Made by a program: the position numbers and the translations under genes. Positions 18,989 to 25,143 of a stretch of DNA of 64,000 nucleotides are shown piece after piece. The notes under the pieces are model-generated. The model searched no databases. It was not told the origin of the DNA and worked only from the letters and a program-made list of their open reading frames with translations. The DNA lies in NCBI GenBank assembly GCA_947565425.1, contig CANOFW010000011.1, positions 15,484-79,483 of the forward strand, read 5' to 3'. Every line of letters starts with the position of its first letter. Position 1 is the stretch's first letter. This stretch comes from an uncultured Lachnospiraceae bacterium. GTDB lineage: Bacteria; Bacillota; Clostridia; Lachnospirales; Lachnospiraceae.

Positions 18989-19614
18989 ATGAATCAGAGA
19001 CGTCCCTATAATCTTACATTAAGATATTGCCTCTACCAATCGACATTTTTTTTATCATGTGCAGGCATATTCGGATTTGCAGTAACGTATCTGCTGGAAA
19101 AGGGATTTCAGACGGCAGAGATTGGAATGATGATTGCGGCGAGTAATTTTCTTTCCTGTGTTGTACAGCCATTTCTTGGTGATTTTGCAGATCGTTTTCC
19201 TAAGATACGTCTGACGAGTATGATCGCAGTGTGTCTCCTATGTTGTTTTCTATGCTTTGCCACAATTCAGATGTGCCGGCCGCCGCTGGTAATATTTGGC
19301 ATATTGTATACAGTAGGCGGATTGGCGATTACCTTAACGCCGCCGCTGGGCAATGCGCTCTGCGTATATTATAACGAGCGGAATTATAAAGTTGATTATG
19401 GGATTGGTTCAGGAGTAGGTTCTTTTTCTTATTCCGTTGCTATGTTAAGCCTGGGGTATGTTATAGCAGCTTTGGGGACAGACTGGATGGTGTGGGCAGT
19501 TTTGTCGGCGGCAAGGCGATAGATGCTTTTAACTTTCAGGTAATGATTCTCTTGGCGGGATTGTTGGCAGGGCTGGGAACAATCATTGTCAATTGCAACA
19601 TTAAAAAAGAGTAA
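18989..19614 (+). pseudogene. MFS transporter pseudogene with internal deletion and frameshift
   Basis: The ORF covers only the N-terminal MFS half and stops at 19522. A C-terminal helix (GSFVGGKAIDAFNFQVMILLAGLLAGLGTIIVNCNIKKE*) reads in another frame from 19495 to 19614. Confidence 0.75.
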
Positions 19615-19703
19615 CGCAAAATCTCTGCCTATTGCTTTTTGGCACGTTCTAAGCTATAATTGTCAAGGATTTCGATTGTGAGACTGAGAAAGGATTTGCT
19701 TTC

Positions 19704-20696
19704 ATGGATAAACGTGTAATCTCCACGCAGATACAGGAGGAGGATCAGAAGATTGAGACAAGCCTTCGCCCGCAGCGTCTGGAGGAGTATATTGGGCAGG
19801 AGAAAGCCAAAAAGACCCTAAAGGTATATATTGAGGCGGCAAAGCAAAGAGGAGAAGCCCTGGACCATGTGCTGTTTTACGGGCCTCCGGGCTTGGGTAA
19901 AACTACGCTCGCAGGGATTATTGCCAACGAGATGGACGTGCATATGAAGATTACTTCTGGTCCGGCAATTGGCAAACCCGGGGAAATGGCAGCAATTTTA
20001 AGCGGCCTTTCCGAAGGAGACATTCTTTTTGTCGATGAGATTCATAGACTCAACCGTCAAGTGGAAGAAGTACTTTATCCCGCCATGGAGGATTATGTGA
20101 TTGATATTATGATTGGCAAGGGCGCGACAGCGCGTTCTATTCGCTTGGATCTGCCGCAGTTTACGCTGGTGGGAGCAACTACAAGGGCTGGACTGTTATC
20201 TGCTCCGCTGCGGGACCGTTTTGGCGTCATGCACCATCTGGAATTTTATAATCCCGCGGAGCTGAAAACGATTATTCTGCAATCGGCAGTAAAACTTGAC
20301 GTTGAGATTGATGAGGAGGGTGCATTTGAACTCGCGCGGCGCTCGCGGGGAACGCCCAGGCTTGCCAACCGTCTATTAAAGCGTGTCCGCGATTTTGCCC
20401 AGGTGAAATACGACGGCAAAATTACCAAAGATGTGGCGTCTTTCGCGCTGGATCTTCTGGAAGTGGATAAGCTGGGCCTGGATCAGAACGACCGCAATAT
20501 CTTAATGACAATGATAGAAAAGTTTAACGGCGGCCCTGTAGGGCTGGATACGTTGGCGGCTTCCCTGGGGGAAGATTCCGGCACAATCGAGGATGTGTAT
20601 GAACCGTATCTTGTAAAGAACGGTTTTATCAACCGCACGCCCAAGGGCCGGGTGGTGACGGACTATGCTTATAAACATTTTGGCATAACGGCTTGA
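19704..20696 (+). CDS. ruvB: Holliday junction DNA helicase RuvB
   Basis: [50 protein letters not shown]. Confidence 0.97.
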
Positions 20697-20777
20697 AAAA
20701 GTTGTGCTATTTGATATAATGGCTTATAGAAATAACTGGTATATACGCATACATGAGGAAAGAAATGAGGTAGATTT

Positions 20778-22184
20778 ATGGGAGGATTTTTTGGAGCGGC
20801 ATCTGCACAGGACTGTGTATTTGATTTATTTTTTGGCATTGATTACCATTCCCATTTGGGCACGAAGCGCGGAGGAATGGTGGTTTATGGGGAAGGCGGG
20901 TTTGACCGCGCCATCCACAATATCGAAAATGCGCCGTTTCGCACGAAATTCGACAAGGATGTAAAGAAAATGACCGGTACGATGGGCATTGGTTGTATTT
21001 CCGATTATGAGCCGCAGCCGCTTTTGGTGCGTTCCCATCATGGAACATACGCGATCACGACAGTAAGCAAAATCAATAATATGGAAGAACTGACGAAAAT
21101 GCTCTTTGACAATGGACATTCTCATTTCCTGGAGATGAGCGGCGGTGACATCAATGCTACAGAAATGATCGCCTGTCTGATCAATCAGAAAGAAAATCTC
21201 ATTGAGGGAATCCGTTATGCCCTAGAGTCGGTGGACGGTTCTGTTTCGATCCTTCTGATGAACGAAAAGGGGATCTATGCGGCCAGAGATCAATACGGAA
21301 GAACACCGGTTGTCGTAGGTAAGAAGGAAGATGCTTTTTGTATTTCTTTTGAGAATTTTGCCTACAGGAACCTTGGATATAAAGATTATAAAGAACTGGG
21401 ACCAGGCGAAATTGTGATTGTCACAGACAAGGCGTGCACTACCTTATCGGCTCCCCAGGAAGATATGAAGATATGTACGTTTCTATGGGTTTATTACGGA
21501 TATCCGGCGAGCTCTTATGAAGGGACAAGCGTAGAGCAGATGCGTTATGAATGCGGTAGAAGGATGGCAAAGCGTGATAATGTCTCCCCGGATATTGTGG
21601 CAGGTGTGCCGGATTCCGGGACTGCCCATGCGATTGGCTATGCAAATGAATCAGGGATTCCGTTTTCCAGGCCGTTTATCAAATATACACCTACTTGGCC
21701 GCGTTCTTTTATGCCTACGATTCAGAGTAAAAGGGACTTGATCGCTAAGATGAAACTTCTAGCTGTAGAGGAACTGATTCGCGATAAGAGTTTGTTATTG
21801 ATTGACGACTCTATTGTAAGGGGTACGCAGCTTCGGGAGACCACGGAGTTCTTGTATGAGAGCGGAGCCAAAGAGGTTCATGTCCGCCCGGCATGTCCGC
21901 CCTTGCTTTATGGATGCAAGTATCTGAATTTCTCACGTTCTACCTCCGAGATGGATTTGATTGCCCGAAGAGTGATTGACCGTCTGGAAAATGGAAACGT
22001 GACGGATGAGGTACTCAAAGAATATGCAGACCCGGAATCACCCAAGTATGAACAGATGGTTGAAGAAATCCGCAAAGAGCAGAATTTTACGTCGCTGAGG
22101 TTTAATCGTTTGGATGATATGCTGGATTCTGTAGGGATTGATAAATGTAAATTGTGTACCTATTGCTGGAATGGACAGGAGTAG
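20778..22184 (+). CDS. purF: Amidophosphoribosyltransferase-like protein with degenerate glutaminase domain
   Basis: PRT motif LLIDDSIVRGT, GVPDSG, ARDQYGRTP and Fe-S cysteines (CTFLWVY, PACPP...GC, CKLCTYCW). The N-terminus is MGGFFG instead of CGIxG. Confidence 0.88.
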   Translation: MGGFFGAASAQDCVFDLFFGIDYHSHLGTKRGGMVVYGEGGFDRAIHNIENAPFRTKFDKDVKKMTGTMGIGCISDYEPQPLLVRSHHGTYAITTVSKINNMEELTKMLFDNGHSHFLEMSGGDINATEMIACLINQKENLIEGIRYALESVDGSVSILLMNEKGIYAARDQYGRTPVVVGKKEDAFCISFENFAYRNLGYKDYKELGPGEIVIVTDKACTTLSAPQEDMKICTFLWVYYGYPASSYEGTSVEQMRYECGRRMAKRDNVSPDIVAGVPDSGTAHAIGYANESGIPFSRPFIKYTPTWPRSFMPTIQSKRDLIAKMKLLAVEELIRDKSLLLIDDSIVRGTQLRETTEFLYESGAKEVHVRPACPPLLYGCKYLNFSRSTSEMDLIARRVIDRLENGNVTDEVLKEYADPESPKYEQMVEEIRKEQNFTSLRFNRLDDMLDSVGIDKCKLCTYCWNGQE

Positions 22185-22243
22185 TGTGCAAAGCAAACGT
22201 TCGGTTGATAAAATAGCTTGTTATTCAGGGAGGAATCATGCAT

Positions 22244-22789
22244 ATGTCAGTGAAAACCAGTGCGGATGTGTTGATAGGTGGGAAGATTTATACGTTAAGT
22301 GGTTATGAAAGCGAAGAATATCTGCAAAAAGTGGCGAATTACATCAATAACAAAATAAATGAGTTCGATGAAATGGAGCAATTTCGTCAAATTCCGGCAG
22401 ATATGAAGGCCACGCTTTTAGAACTTAATATTGCGGATGATTACTTTAAGGCAAAGGAACAGGCGGAGGTCTTAGAAAAAACTGTCCGGGAAAAGGAAAG
22501 AGAGATTTATGAGCTTCAACATGACTTAATCTCCGCTAACATTAAGGTCGAGAGCAGTGAAGAGAATGCGGCTAGCCTGGAAAAAGAAAATAAAGAACTC
22601 TTATTGAATAAGGCGAAATTGGAGACATCACTTGCCGACGCTCTGCTAGGCAAGGTAAAATGCCAGACGCCTGCGGAAACAAACGAGCAGCAGACAGAGA
22701 ACAATGAGACAAAGCCGCCAGCGGATAGCCAAACATCTGCAATGGGACAAGCTGAGAACAAGAAACAGAATTCAAATAGAAAAAAATAA
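22244..22789 (+). CDS. zapA: Cell division protein ZapA with coiled-coil and low-complexity extension
   Basis: VLIGGKIYTLSGYESEEYLQKVANYIN...LELNIADDYFK. Confidence 0.8.
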   Translation: MSVKTSADVLIGGKIYTLSGYESEEYLQKVANYINNKINEFDEMEQFRQIPADMKATLLELNIADDYFKAKEQAEVLEKTVREKEREIYELQHDLISANIKVESSEENAASLEKENKELLLNKAKLETSLADALLGKVKCQTPAETNEQQTENNETKPPADSQTSAMGQAENKKQNSNRKK

Positions 22790-22938
22790 CAAGGCGGAAG
22801 CTGTTGCGAAAGTAGTTTGCATACAATATGTGTATTGTATGGATGTTGTATTTTGCAGCAGCTTCTTAATGCTATGGATGAAGTTAAAGTATGGCAAAGC
22901 GCATGCCACTTGAACAAAAAGACAGGAGGTACATCGTT

Positions 22939-25143
22939 TTGTGTAGAAAAACAGAGCTTTTGGCTCCGGCTGGTTCCTTGGAGATTTTAGAGGCGGCAAT
23001 AGAGGCAGGAGCAGATGCGGTATACGCAGCCGGAGGCAAATTCGGCGCCCGTGCCTATGCCAAGAATTTCACCGAAGAGGAAATGCTTACAGCCATTGAT
23101 TATGTGCATATTAGAGAAAAGCGGTTGTACCTGACGGTCAACACACTGTTGAAGGAGCAAGAAATTGAGGAGTTGTACGAGTATCTTTGCCCACTGTACG
23201 AGGCTGGACTTGACGCAGTAATTGTACAGGATATTGGCGTTATGCATTACATCAGGAATCACTTTCCTGATTTGTCTATTCATGCCAGTACGCAGATGAC
23301 AGTCACCGGAGCTTATGGTGCAAAGCTGCTGATGGAGCATGGATGCAGCCGTATTGTGACGGCGCGGGAATTATCTCTTGCTGAAATTTCCCATATTTAC
23401 CGCACGACGGGGGCAGAGATTGAGAGTTTTGTACATGGCGCTCTCTGTTATAGTTATTCCGGTCAGTGTTTGATGAGCAGTATGATTGGCGGAAGGAGCG
23501 GCAACCGCGGCAGGTGCGCGCAGCCCTGCCGCCTGCCTTACGAATTGCAAAAAACACGACAGGGGTCCGTTTGCAGACAGGAGGGAAAATACCTTTTGAG
23601 CCTGAAAGACCTCTGTACGATTGAGATGATTCCAGAACTTGTACAAAGCGGTATTCATTCTTTTAAGATTGAAGGCCGTATGAAGCAGGAAGCGTATGTT
23701 GCTGGTGTAACCGCCGTTTATCGGAAATACCTTGATTTATATGAAAATCATCCCAACGGCGATTACCAAGTGAGTAACGAAGATTATCAAAAACTGCTCA
23801 ATTTGGGAAACCGCAGTGGATTTACGGATGGCTACTATCAGAGACAAAACGGCAGGCAAATGGTTACTTTTCAGAAGCCATCCCATGAGAAAAACAGTGG
23901 AGAAACACAAACAGGGATTGATAATAACAGTGATATACAGGTAAATAAAGAAAAAATAAATGGAATATTAAGGATTTTTATAAACAATCCTGCAAGCCTT
24001 GTGTTAGAATATAAAGGGATACAAGCAGAAGTTTCCGGCTTCACAGTACAGACTGCCGAAAAACAACCGTTAGAGCGGGAGGCTGTTCTCGCACGAATGA
24101 AAAAGACCGGCAATACGCCGTTTACATTTGAACAATTGCAGATTGAGCTGGATGCGGGCAGTTTTGTTCCGGCTGGCGCTTTAAACCAATTGCGTAGGGA
24201 TGGAATTGAGAAATTAACAGCGCTTGTGCTGGCAAAGCATCAAAGAAGAGCACCTATCAGGCGAAAGGACAGCAGAACAATATGGCATAAACAAGAGGAA
24301 CAGAGCCAGGAGACTTTGACGCGTCTGTCGGTGCTGACAGAAACCGTGGAACAGTTTCAGGTTGTTTTAGCACAGCCGGAGGCAGAGCGCATATATTTGG
24401 AAGCTGTTGCATTTTCACGCGCACAGTTGTGCCGAGAAGTCAAAGAGCTGGCTGGGCAGGCACATGCGAATGGCAAAACGTGTTATCTTGCGCTGCCGCA
24501 CGTTTTCCGCAGGCAGACAGCCGATTGGTATGCGAAAAATTGGCGACAGATTGCCGGAACCGGTGTGGACGGTTATCTCGTACGCAATTTAGAGGAACTT
24601 TCGTTTTTACAGGAAATGGGCGTGCCTATGGCACAGATTCAGGGAGACACTAATTTATACGTTTTTTCCAATGAGGCAGTCCAGGGCTGGCAGACATTGT
24701 CGCTTTGCCATTATACTTTGCCGGTGGAATTAAACGCCAAAGAACTACGACATTTAGATTGCACGGATGGGGAAATGATTGTCTACGGTTATCAGCCGAT
24801 GATGCTGTCTGCACAGTGTTTACATAAAAATACAGAAGGCTGTGACAAGACAGAACGTATTTTTTATTTGAAAGATCGCTATGGTAAGCAGTTTCCGGTG
24901 AAAAATCATTGCGAGGACTGCTTCAATATCATTTATAATATCAGTCCGCTCTCCCTGCTTCATCAGTTTTCAGAGATTCAATCGTTGCGCCCGCGAAGCG
25001 TCCGTCTTTCTTTTACGATAGAGAATGAAATGGAGACGGAAGGTATTTTTGCGTATTATCGACAGGCGAGAGAGGGAAAGCTTGTCAAAGAAAATTATTT
25101 AAATGATTTTACCAATGGACATTTTAAGCGAGGAGTCGATTAA
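22939..25143 (+). CDS. Peptidase U32 family protein with long C-terminal extension (RlhA-like rRNA hydroxylase)
   Basis: ELLAPAGS, HASTQMT, FVHGALCYSYSGQC...RGRCAQPCR (Fe-S motif), KIEGRMK. Probable TTG start at 22939 after GGAGG. Confidence 0.85.
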   Translation: MCRKTELLAPAGSLEILEAAIEAGADAVYAAGGKFGARAYAKNFTEEEMLTAIDYVHIREKRLYLTVNTLLKEQEIEELYEYLCPLYEAGLDAVIVQDIGVMHYIRNHFPDLSIHASTQMTVTGAYGAKLLMEHGCSRIVTARELSLAEISHIYRTTGAEIESFVHGALCYSYSGQCLMSSMIGGRSGNRGRCAQPCRLPYELQKTRQGSVCRQEGKYLLSLKDLCTIEMIPELVQSGIHSFKIEGRMKQEAYVAGVTAVYRKYLDLYENHPNGDYQVSNEDYQKLLNLGNRSGFTDGYYQRQNGRQMVTFQKPSHEKNSGETQTGIDNNSDIQVNKEKINGILRIFINNPASLVLEYKGIQAEVSGFTVQTAEKQPLEREAVLARMKKTGNTPFTFEQLQIELDAGSFVPAGALNQLRRDGIEKLTALVLAKHQRRAPIRRKDSRTIWHKQEEQSQETLTRLSVLTETVEQFQVVLAQPEAERIYLEAVAFSRAQLCREVKELAGQAHANGKTCYLALPHVFRRQTADWYAKNWRQIAGTGVDGYLVRNLEELSFLQEMGVPMAQIQGDTNLYVFSNEAVQGWQTLSLCHYTLPVELNAKELRHLDCTDGEMIVYGYQPMMLSAQCLHKNTEGCDKTERIFYLKDRYGKQFPVKNHCEDCFNIIYNISPLSLLHQFSEIQSLRPRSVRLSFTIENEMETEGIFAYYRQAREGKLVKENYLNDFTNGHFKRGVD

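Follow-up and report, generated by a model that had tools for sequence, protein, structure and literature searches.

In textbooks, the step that commits a cell to purine synthesis is the glutamine-dependent reaction of PurF (amidophosphoribosyltransferase). What is to be made of a PurF from which the glutamine site has disappeared is the question raised by a gene in a stretch of 64,000 nucleotides (the 64-kb window, meaning the whole stretch analyzed) from an uncultured Lachnospiraceae bacterium (contig CANOFW010000011.1). A first-pass annotation, made from the letters alone, had read this gene as a purF with a dismantled glutaminase domain and suggested that its product may use free ammonia. 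We find that a PurF lacking Cys1 is not peculiar to the window genome and that the window protein belongs to a very widespread clade of Cys-less PurF paralogs, for which we use the name X. As judged from sequence comparison, X is an old, widespread clade in which glutaminase chemistry of the N-terminal nucleophile (Ntn) type is gone and the N-terminal domain has been rebuilt. On balance, we think it likely that X is a glutamine-independent, ammonia-using aminotransferase acting on phosphoribosyl pyrophosphate (PRPP), and that the phosphoribosylamine so formed would feed PurD.

Loss of the glutamine site

The open reading frame at 20778..22184 on the plus strand starts with ATG and encodes 468 amino acids, exactly as first described. 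The window protein was aligned to canonical PurFs of related genomes and these to the Bacillus subtilis structure 1AO0, with B. subtilis mature numbering. The features that matter here, including those of the type I phosphoribosyltransferase (PRTase) domain and its pyrophosphate (PPi) loop, are as follows.

20778..22184, plus strand: coding sequence of the window X, 468 amino acids plus stop
20778..21461, plus strand: N-terminal Ntn-type (class II amidotransferase-like) domain, residues 1 to ~228; fold predicted to be kept, glutaminase residues replaced
20781..20783, plus strand: Gly2 (of MGGFFG, residues 1-6) replacing catalytic Cys1; from the alignment to canonical PurFs and clade residue counts
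20841..20861, plus strand: DYHSHLG motif (SHLG, residues 25-28) replacing canonical (A)LQHRGQ, with Leu27 for Arg26; from the alignment and clade counts
20985..21020, plus strand: GIGCISDYEPQP, the shortened glutamine loop, with an 8-residue deletion removing Arg72/Tyr73; from the alignment
21057..21080, plus strand: TTVSKINN (residues 94-101) replacing (A)HNGNLxN, the oxyanion-hole Asn102-Gly103 becoming Val96-Ser97; from the alignment
21153..21164, plus strand: NATE (residues 126-129) replacing SDTE, Asp127 becoming Ala127; from the HMMER alignment to 1AO0 and the residue distribution
21462..21962, plus strand: type I PRTase domain, residues ~229-395, containing Cys233; conserved in 27-29/29 clade members
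21603-21620, plus strand: GVPDSG (PPi loop, residues 276-281), within the PRTase domain
21681-21683, plus strand: flexible-loop Lys302
21702-21704, plus strand: Arg309
21801-21830, plus strand: PRPP loop IDDSIVRGTQ (residues 342-351), within the PRTase domain
21915-21917, plus strand: Cys380, within the PRTase domain
21963..22052, plus strand: clade-specific insertion of ~25-30 residues (ARRVIDRLENGNVTDEVLKEYADPESPKYE), without counterpart in canonical PurF in the alignment
22155..22166, plus strand: C-terminal CxxC, Cys460 and Cys463, predicted third and fourth [4Fe-4S] ligands of the B. subtilis type; 28/29 and 29/29

All of the strings that the first-pass annotation gave as replacements of the four glutaminase motifs (MGGFFG, SHLGT, TTVSKINN and NATE) are present and were mapped on B. 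subtilis PurF. At the QHRG motif, the His and Gly are kept, while Gln is changed to Ser and Arg26 to Leu27 (S-H-Leu27-Gly28), and canonical His101-Asn102-Gly103 correspond to Thr95-Val96-Ser97. An additional loss, absent from the earlier list, concerns the glutamine loop, where the 8-residue deletion turns GHVRYSTAGG, with its Arg72/Tyr73, into GCIS-D. The PRPP loop (DDSIVRGT), GVPDSG, Lys302, Arg309 and the four iron-sulfur cysteines are invariant between the window protein and canonical PurFs, in agreement with the earlier view of the two loops and the cysteines as intact. Cys233, Cys380, Cys460 and Cys463 align with the cluster cysteines of 1AO0, from which a [4Fe-4S] site is predicted.

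Among Pfam profiles, GATase_7 gives a weak match (33.8 bits, residues 76-189) and the PRTase domain stays below threshold. The purF equivalog model TIGR01134 scores the window protein at 195.4 bits, below its cutoff of 350, and five further clade members (two of them from the operon slot described below) at 173-210 bits; a canonical Lachnospiraceae PurF, used as positive control, reaches 509.5. Among solved structures the closest is that of B. subtilis PurF, 1AO0 (1e-45), which aligns from residue 76 only, and residues 1-75 gave no sequence alignment to PurFs of the Protein Data Bank. An AlphaFold (AF2) model of the window protein, built on 29 diverse homologs, has a predicted local distance difference test score (pLDDT) of 93.6 and a predicted template-modelling score (pTM) of 0.91. 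Foldseek aligns this model from the N-terminus and superposes it full length on B. subtilis 1AO0 (TM 0.84/0.86) and E. coli PurF (0.81-0.83), with Arabidopsis PurF superposing too (0.81-0.86 overall). As the superposition runs over the full length, the two-domain PurF architecture appears to be retained, the N-terminal strand included. Helices are predicted around the ARRVIDRLENGNVTDEVLKEYADPESPKYE insertion at residues 395-403, 410-417 and 422-435.

Two features upstream of the gene bear on its start and its expression.

20766..20771, plus strand: in-frame TGA (20766-20768) overlapping the ribosome-binding site GAGG (20767-20770), read directly
20693..20720, plus strand: promoter-like TTGAAA-16 nt-TATAAT with a TG extension (TGnTATAAT), 11/12 matches, located after the stop codon of ruvB and ahead of the start of X

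Because the TGA stands in frame 9 nucleotides upstream of the ATG and the GAGG lies 7 nucleotides before it, the N-terminus MGGFFG is real, and the earlier statement that there is no propeptide or alternative Cys start holds. The promoter-like element is the top match within 19500-23000, in which the total number of matches is not above that of shuffled sequence; it is no more than suggestive of a self-contained gene with its own candidate promoter. In an Rfam scan of the window and 8 related loci, one tRNA was the sole match, with no riboswitch or further RNA element ahead of X.

Extent of the clade and selection

An exhaustive search of 1.84 billion cluster representatives returned proteins whose alignment with the window protein spans the full length, starting at residue 1, with scores of 235-577 bits and identities as low as ~33%; canonical PurF reaches only 159 bits. 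Two collection scans gave at least 600 matches each; among the matches listed, the genome-collection scan yielded X loci alone, the best at 92% identity. Taken as their sources give them, the taxon names of these proteins and metagenome-assembled genomes (MAGs) include Lachnospiraceae, Roseburia, Clostridium, Eubacterium, Dysosmobacter, Lawsonibacter, Ruminococcaceae and Muribaculaceae, as well as candidate division WOR-3, Cloacimonadota, Stahlbacteria and Pacearchaeota. The contigs of several members are plainly archaeal and carry PolD, Cdc6, RtcB/archease, LonB and Kae1. All sources name these proteins 'amidophosphoribosyltransferase', and neither NCBIfam nor Pfam holds a model dedicated to the clade.

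Residues were counted in 29 diverse clade members and separately in 77 metagenomic members. Cys is found at position 2 in neither set: the diverse members have Ser (11), Gly (9), Ala (3), Thr (2) and Lys, Met or Asp (once each), and the metagenomic members Gly (76) and Ser (1). The DYHSHLG motif is present in 77/77 metagenomic members, and among the diverse members Y23 is found in 27/29, H26 in 26/29 and L27, in the place of Arg26, in 23/29. Ser75 is conserved (27/29), Asp76 is common (19/29) and Asn101 is invariant in the clade, while the positions equivalent to Asn102 and Asp127 vary across the 29 members. These residues form a signature of the clade, namely an M-[GSAT]-G-x-x-G start, a DYHSHLG-type motif, a shortened loop G-x-I-S-D, Gln80-Pro81, Asn101, RGTQ, the C-terminal insertion of ~25-30 residues and four Cys, and the window protein has every one of them. 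Alignment across the clade shows loss of every glutamine-site residue together with conservation of the PRTase residues and of the four cysteines (27-29/29 diverse members). As the same pattern is held by every member of a large clade, it lies far beyond chance. Pseudoenzymes normally lose catalytic residues such as those of the PRTase site.

The ratio of nonsynonymous to synonymous substitution rates (dN/dS) was determined against the closest genome-collection ortholog among the matches listed (L002, 92% identity), a comparison in which dS is near saturation; it is 0.026 for residues 1-75, 0.024 for residues 76-225 and 0.017 for the PRTase domain. Over 77 Lachnospiraceae orthologs, identity to the window protein is 77% for residues 1-75, 66% for residues 76-225 and on average 84% for the PRTase domain. 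The 'dismantled' N-domain of X is under strong purifying constraint. Since the losses are clade-wide and dN/dS is ~0.02-0.03 in both domains, selection rather than decay accounts for them, as was originally argued.

It is scarcely credible, then, that X is a pseudogene, a purF with a wrongly assigned start codon or a sequencing artefact. Nothing favours such an explanation besides the missing residues themselves, and against it stand the intact frame with its upstream stop, thousands of homologs with the same N-terminus, an identical protein on independent contigs, the dN/dS of ~0.02 and the confident structure prediction. We have accordingly rejected the idea of a decaying or miscalled purF. 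In the sequencing runs flagged 'RNA?', contig depth is flat across all genes, and DNA may be present in these runs.

Position of X in purine operons

Gene order was read at 80 orthologous Lachnospiraceae genome loci and at 80 metagenomic loci seeded on an Oscillospiraceae-type lineage, with the context readable for ~10 kb around each match. The proposed link to purine entry is supported by the gene order of relatives. On Oscillospiraceae-type contigs, X fills the purF slot of a pur operon that runs purE-purC-X-purM-purN-purO-purH-purD-purL, with overlapping stop/start codons or near-zero gaps, and this arrangement occurs in two lineages whose X proteins are 57% and 54% identical to the window protein. 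Among the metagenomic loci, 32 read purC-X-purM and 4 purE-X-purM, which makes 36 with X alone in the purF slot (median gaps of ~0 and 9 nucleotides); a further 8 are incomplete yet consistent, in 6 the operon contains both X and a canonical purF, in tandem, 3 read purB-X, and 27/80 are without a pur neighbour, many on short contigs. Canonical purF is absent from the 8 slot-type loci having ~10 kb on either side. The metagenomic X proteins start M-G-G/A or M-S-G overall and those of the slot type all M-G-G, so that Ntn hydrolysis would be impossible for the latter; the tandem canonical copies carry HEECGVFG...LQHRGQE.

Most Lachnospiraceae copies of X are stand-alone genes in variable contexts. 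In 10/80 genomes purB lies directly upstream on the same strand, 4 of these reading canonical purF-purB-X, and 2 further loci read X-canonical purF, giving a canonical purF within two genes of X in 6/80. In Bacteroidota, purL is followed by X. A long branch separates X from canonical PurF in a neighbour-joining tree, in which tandem and slot-only arrangements are interleaved (L164, slot-only, falls in a tandem clade and L109, tandem, in a slot-only clade). This interleaving implies that the canonical neighbour comes and goes while X stays.

These arrangements bear on what the window organism itself may contain. The first-pass annotation had taken a canonical purF elsewhere in the genome, with this copy inactive on ammonia, to count against its proposal. 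The first part probably applies, as the adjacent canonical purF in 6/80 related Lachnospiraceae indicates, although none lies in the 64-kb window (tblastn). The window X is thus probably a second isozyme beside a canonical PurF, as in the six related genomes. Coexistence with a canonical purF, however, does not by itself refute activity of X on ammonia.

The same tandems are relevant to an alternative raised at the outset, that X is a non-catalytic or regulatory partner which co-assembles in the PurF tetramer or binds PRPP or purine nucleotides to tune the first step. The existence of tandem X-purF operons strengthens this alternative: a canonical purF is adjacent or in tandem on the same strand in 6/80 Lachnospiraceae genomes and 6/80 metagenomic loci, a crenarchaeal pair (see below) is arranged likewise, and the strong conservation of the whole fold, N-domain included, would suit an assembly partner. 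Nevertheless, X keeps Lys302, Arg309 and both the PPi and PRPP loops, which is beyond the needs of ligand sensing. It also occurs at the 36 slot loci in operons without a canonical copy, is retained where the tandem canonical copy is missing, and stands alone in most Lachnospiraceae. A purely regulatory role therefore seems to us unlikely, though it merits serious consideration.

Source of the nitrogen and nature of the product

Occupation of the purF position in operons suggests that the product of X is phosphoribosylamine. In the mechanism that we favour, the PRTase domain of X would combine PRPP with free NH3 to give 5-phosphoribosylamine, which PurD would then use. In Oscillospiraceae-type pur operons X would take the place of PurF, and in Lachnospiraceae, by inference including the window organism, it would act as a stand-alone, self-promoted second isozyme beside the canonical glutamine-dependent PurF. 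An ammonia-dependent activity may be attributed to the window protein because it has all the features of the clade and 56% identity to the slot type. The sequencing runs bearing the window are all rodent-gut metagenomes, with no isolate among them, and the rodent gut is an ammonia-rich habitat. PurF Cys1 mutants keep NH3-dependent activity, and we infer from this that free NH3 could be the nitrogen donor of X: in E. coli PurF, such mutations abolished glutamine use and left NH3-dependent phosphoribosylamine synthesis (Mei and Zalkin 1989, as cited in PMC3261824).

Ammonia might instead come from a separate protein, either a glutaminase partner or canonical PurF or PurL through its glutaminase domain, with X still making phosphoribosylamine. 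The first-pass annotation had raised this possibility; the purL-X order of Bacteroidota and the X-purF tandems do put glutaminase-bearing enzymes beside X, and the N-terminal face of X is conserved. However, neither the 80 genome loci nor the 80 metagenomic loci have a free-standing glutaminase recurring beside X, and slot-type operons hold the usual pur genes only. The ammonia channel of known PurF structures, reportedly described by Krahn et al. in 1997, is said to lie within one subunit, which also counts against a separate donor. We regard this arrangement as very unlikely.

A different chemistry is equally improbable in our view. Here the N-domain would be a new site with a non-glutamine nitrogen donor, or PRPP would be coupled to a nucleophile other than ammonia, so that the product would not be phosphoribosylamine. 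The clade does have a motif and residues of its own (Y23 and H26 of DYHSHLG, Ser75, Asn101), and position 2 is nearly always small, permitting Met removal, with Ser/Thr in 13/29 diverse members. Some members occur in lineages or contexts without pur genes, and a divergent one is fused to a TIR domain. On the other hand, the place of X in the purF slot of dozens of operons argues for the PurF product, the slot-type and window proteins have Gly2 and hence no N-terminal nucleophile, and the positions of Asn102 and Asp127 are variable rather than re-fixed.

The N-domain of X would have survived for scaffolding, for conducting ammonia or for allosteric control. In PurF, this domain forms part of the subunit interfaces, of the nucleotide site and of the lid over the PRPP site, and it is presumably for such roles that X has kept it, although the clade's own motif leaves room for a more active one.

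Several observations weigh against a simple ammonia-dependent enzyme. The N-domain has conserved residues of its own (Y23 and H26 of DYHSHLG, Ser75, Asn101 and Gln80-Pro81), and residues 1-75 are more conserved than residues 76-225, both of which suggest that it is more than a passive scaffold. The tandems of X and canonical purF in six operons, together with the adjacency in Lachnospiraceae, fit a cooperating pair or hetero-oligomer equally well. The window neighbours ruvB and zapA are uninformative on function. X is found in a Pacearchaeota MAG and in WOR-3 without nearby pur genes, and DPANN archaea, such as Pacearchaeota, often lack de novo purine synthesis. Moreover, our search of the literature found no description or assay of a bacterial Cys-less PurF clade, only an archaeal note of 2011; a paper on the Fibro-purF riboswitch leaves the type of enzyme aside.

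A bolder proposal combines two points: glutamine-independent entry would be the main or only route to purines in many anaerobes, such as Oscillospiraceae with X alone in the purF slot, and the N-domain would act as an ammonia gate or as a site releasing nitrogen from a compound other than glutamine. We put this forward tentatively and think it rather doubtful as a whole.

Other observations at X loci

In the window, the gene order around X is ruvA-GNAT-MFS fragment-ruvB-X-zapA-U32-ftsW-PBP (GNAT, an acetyltransferase family; MFS, major facilitator superfamily; PBP, penicillin-binding protein). The ruvB-X-zapA context was considered as a functional clue and rejected, being shared by 0/80 orthologous genome loci, the 92%-identity locus included. 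Between ruvA and ruvB, after the GNAT gene, a 177-amino-acid open reading frame (18989-19522) matches positions 212-346 only of the 347 in the MFS_1 profile making it a probable gene remnant; in one metagenomic run it has a 1-nucleotide deletion at 19046. Contigs of runs X2 and X23 match X in just two short, conserved segments of its N-terminus (window 20844-20953), and their loose ends translate as VVLDVFFGVD. These contigs are cross-mapping X homologs of other organisms in the same gut samples and not a variant of the window gene.

In four Lachnospiraceae genomes, X is followed 18-57 nucleotides downstream by carB, the gene for the large subunit of carbamoyl-phosphate synthase (~1073 amino acids), at the following positions.

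L010 9432-12650, same strand as X: carB
L057 9422-12646, same strand as X: carB
L068 9461-12673, same strand as X: carB
L076 6570-8186, same strand as X: carB

A carA-type glutaminase motif is absent within ~8 kb on either side at these four loci. As carB follows X without carA, two glutaminase-less amidotransferase relatives adjoin, one for purine entry and one for pyrimidine/arginine entry.

In the bacterial pur operons with X in the slot (at L086 9074-10895 and L094 9599-11409), a PurO-like IMP cyclohydrolase of archaeal type (PF07826) comes before a PurH that has the AICAR formyltransferase (AICARFT) domain only, in place of the bifunctional PurH. In two archaeal lineages (L089 1299-6297 and L097 3429-8386), with X proteins 43-46% identical to that of the window, the order is PolD large subunit-X-TctA, and the nearest named relative is a Pacearchaeota (DPANN) MAG. 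In the complete WOR-3 genome CP070664.1, X is a stand-alone gene adjoining a rubrerythrin gene (L098 10001-12027), and a short NAD synthase of 286 amino acids without a glutaminase domain is encoded 8 kb downstream (L098 19890-20750). A divergent clade member, P0232 (665 amino acids, 33% identity), has a degraded PRPP loop and a C-terminal TIR domain (TIR_2, 103 bits, residues 531-651), which suggests that some relatives now serve another purpose, possibly in defence.

Significance

If X does use ammonia, many abundant gut and sediment anaerobes would enter purine synthesis without glutamine. Such a route would save energy, as each glutamine costs one ATP via glutamine synthetase, and would tie nucleotide supply directly to ambient ammonia. 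Because the clade is uniformly named 'amidophosphoribosyltransferase', genome-scale models assign to its members a glutamine-dependent reaction that their sequence cannot support. The clade would also provide a natural system in which to study the role of an Ntn amidotransferase domain after loss of its chemistry, as well as that of tandem X-PurF pairs.

Comparison with known systems

Canonical PurF (EC 2.4.2.14; B. subtilis, 1AO0/1GPH) and X have in common the predicted two-domain fold, the PRPP and PPi loops, the flexible-loop Lys/Arg and the cluster cysteines, with ~37% identity over residues 81-380 between X and the canonical PurF of a related genome. Unlike canonical PurF, X is without Cys1, Arg26, the Arg/Tyr glutamine loop, the oxyanion Asn and Asp127, has RGTQ where canonical PurF has RGTT and carries an insertion of ~25-30 residues near the C-terminus.

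Ammonia-dependent NadE, AsnA as opposed to AsnB, and CarB alone are instances of a synthase retained without a glutaminase in niches rich in ammonia. These counterparts are without any glutaminase domain, whereas X keeps the domain in a remodelled and conserved form. The ATP-PRTase HisG is regulated by HisZ, a catalytically dead paralog of HisRS, and the HisZ-HisG pair, a disabled paralog beside an active relative, is the model for a regulatory role of X. However, HisZ has lost its own catalysis entirely, while X keeps a complete PRTase active site. The E. coli Cys1 mutants are engineered single substitutions in a site otherwise intact; X is natural, its whole site rebuilt and under selection.

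The closest parallel is the crenarchaeal PurF' (Brown et al. 2011, Biol Direct 6:63, PMC3261824), a PurF paralog without the N-terminal Cys (Ala or Val in its place), which is present together with a canonical purF and encoded close to it and to other pur genes. We liken it to X, as another Cys-less PurF paralog, by its published description. An ammonia-dependent PRPP aminotransferase activity was proposed for PurF' in the same paper, as a hypothesis, so the idea of ammonia dependence in a Cys-less PurF was already published in 2011. The X clade is nevertheless far wider than the literature suggests: PurF' has been described in Crenarchaeota only, whereas X is found in Bacillota, Bacteroidota, WOR-3, Cloacimonadota and PolD-bearing (non-crenarchaeal) archaea, and often alone in the purF slot, an arrangement not reported for PurF'.

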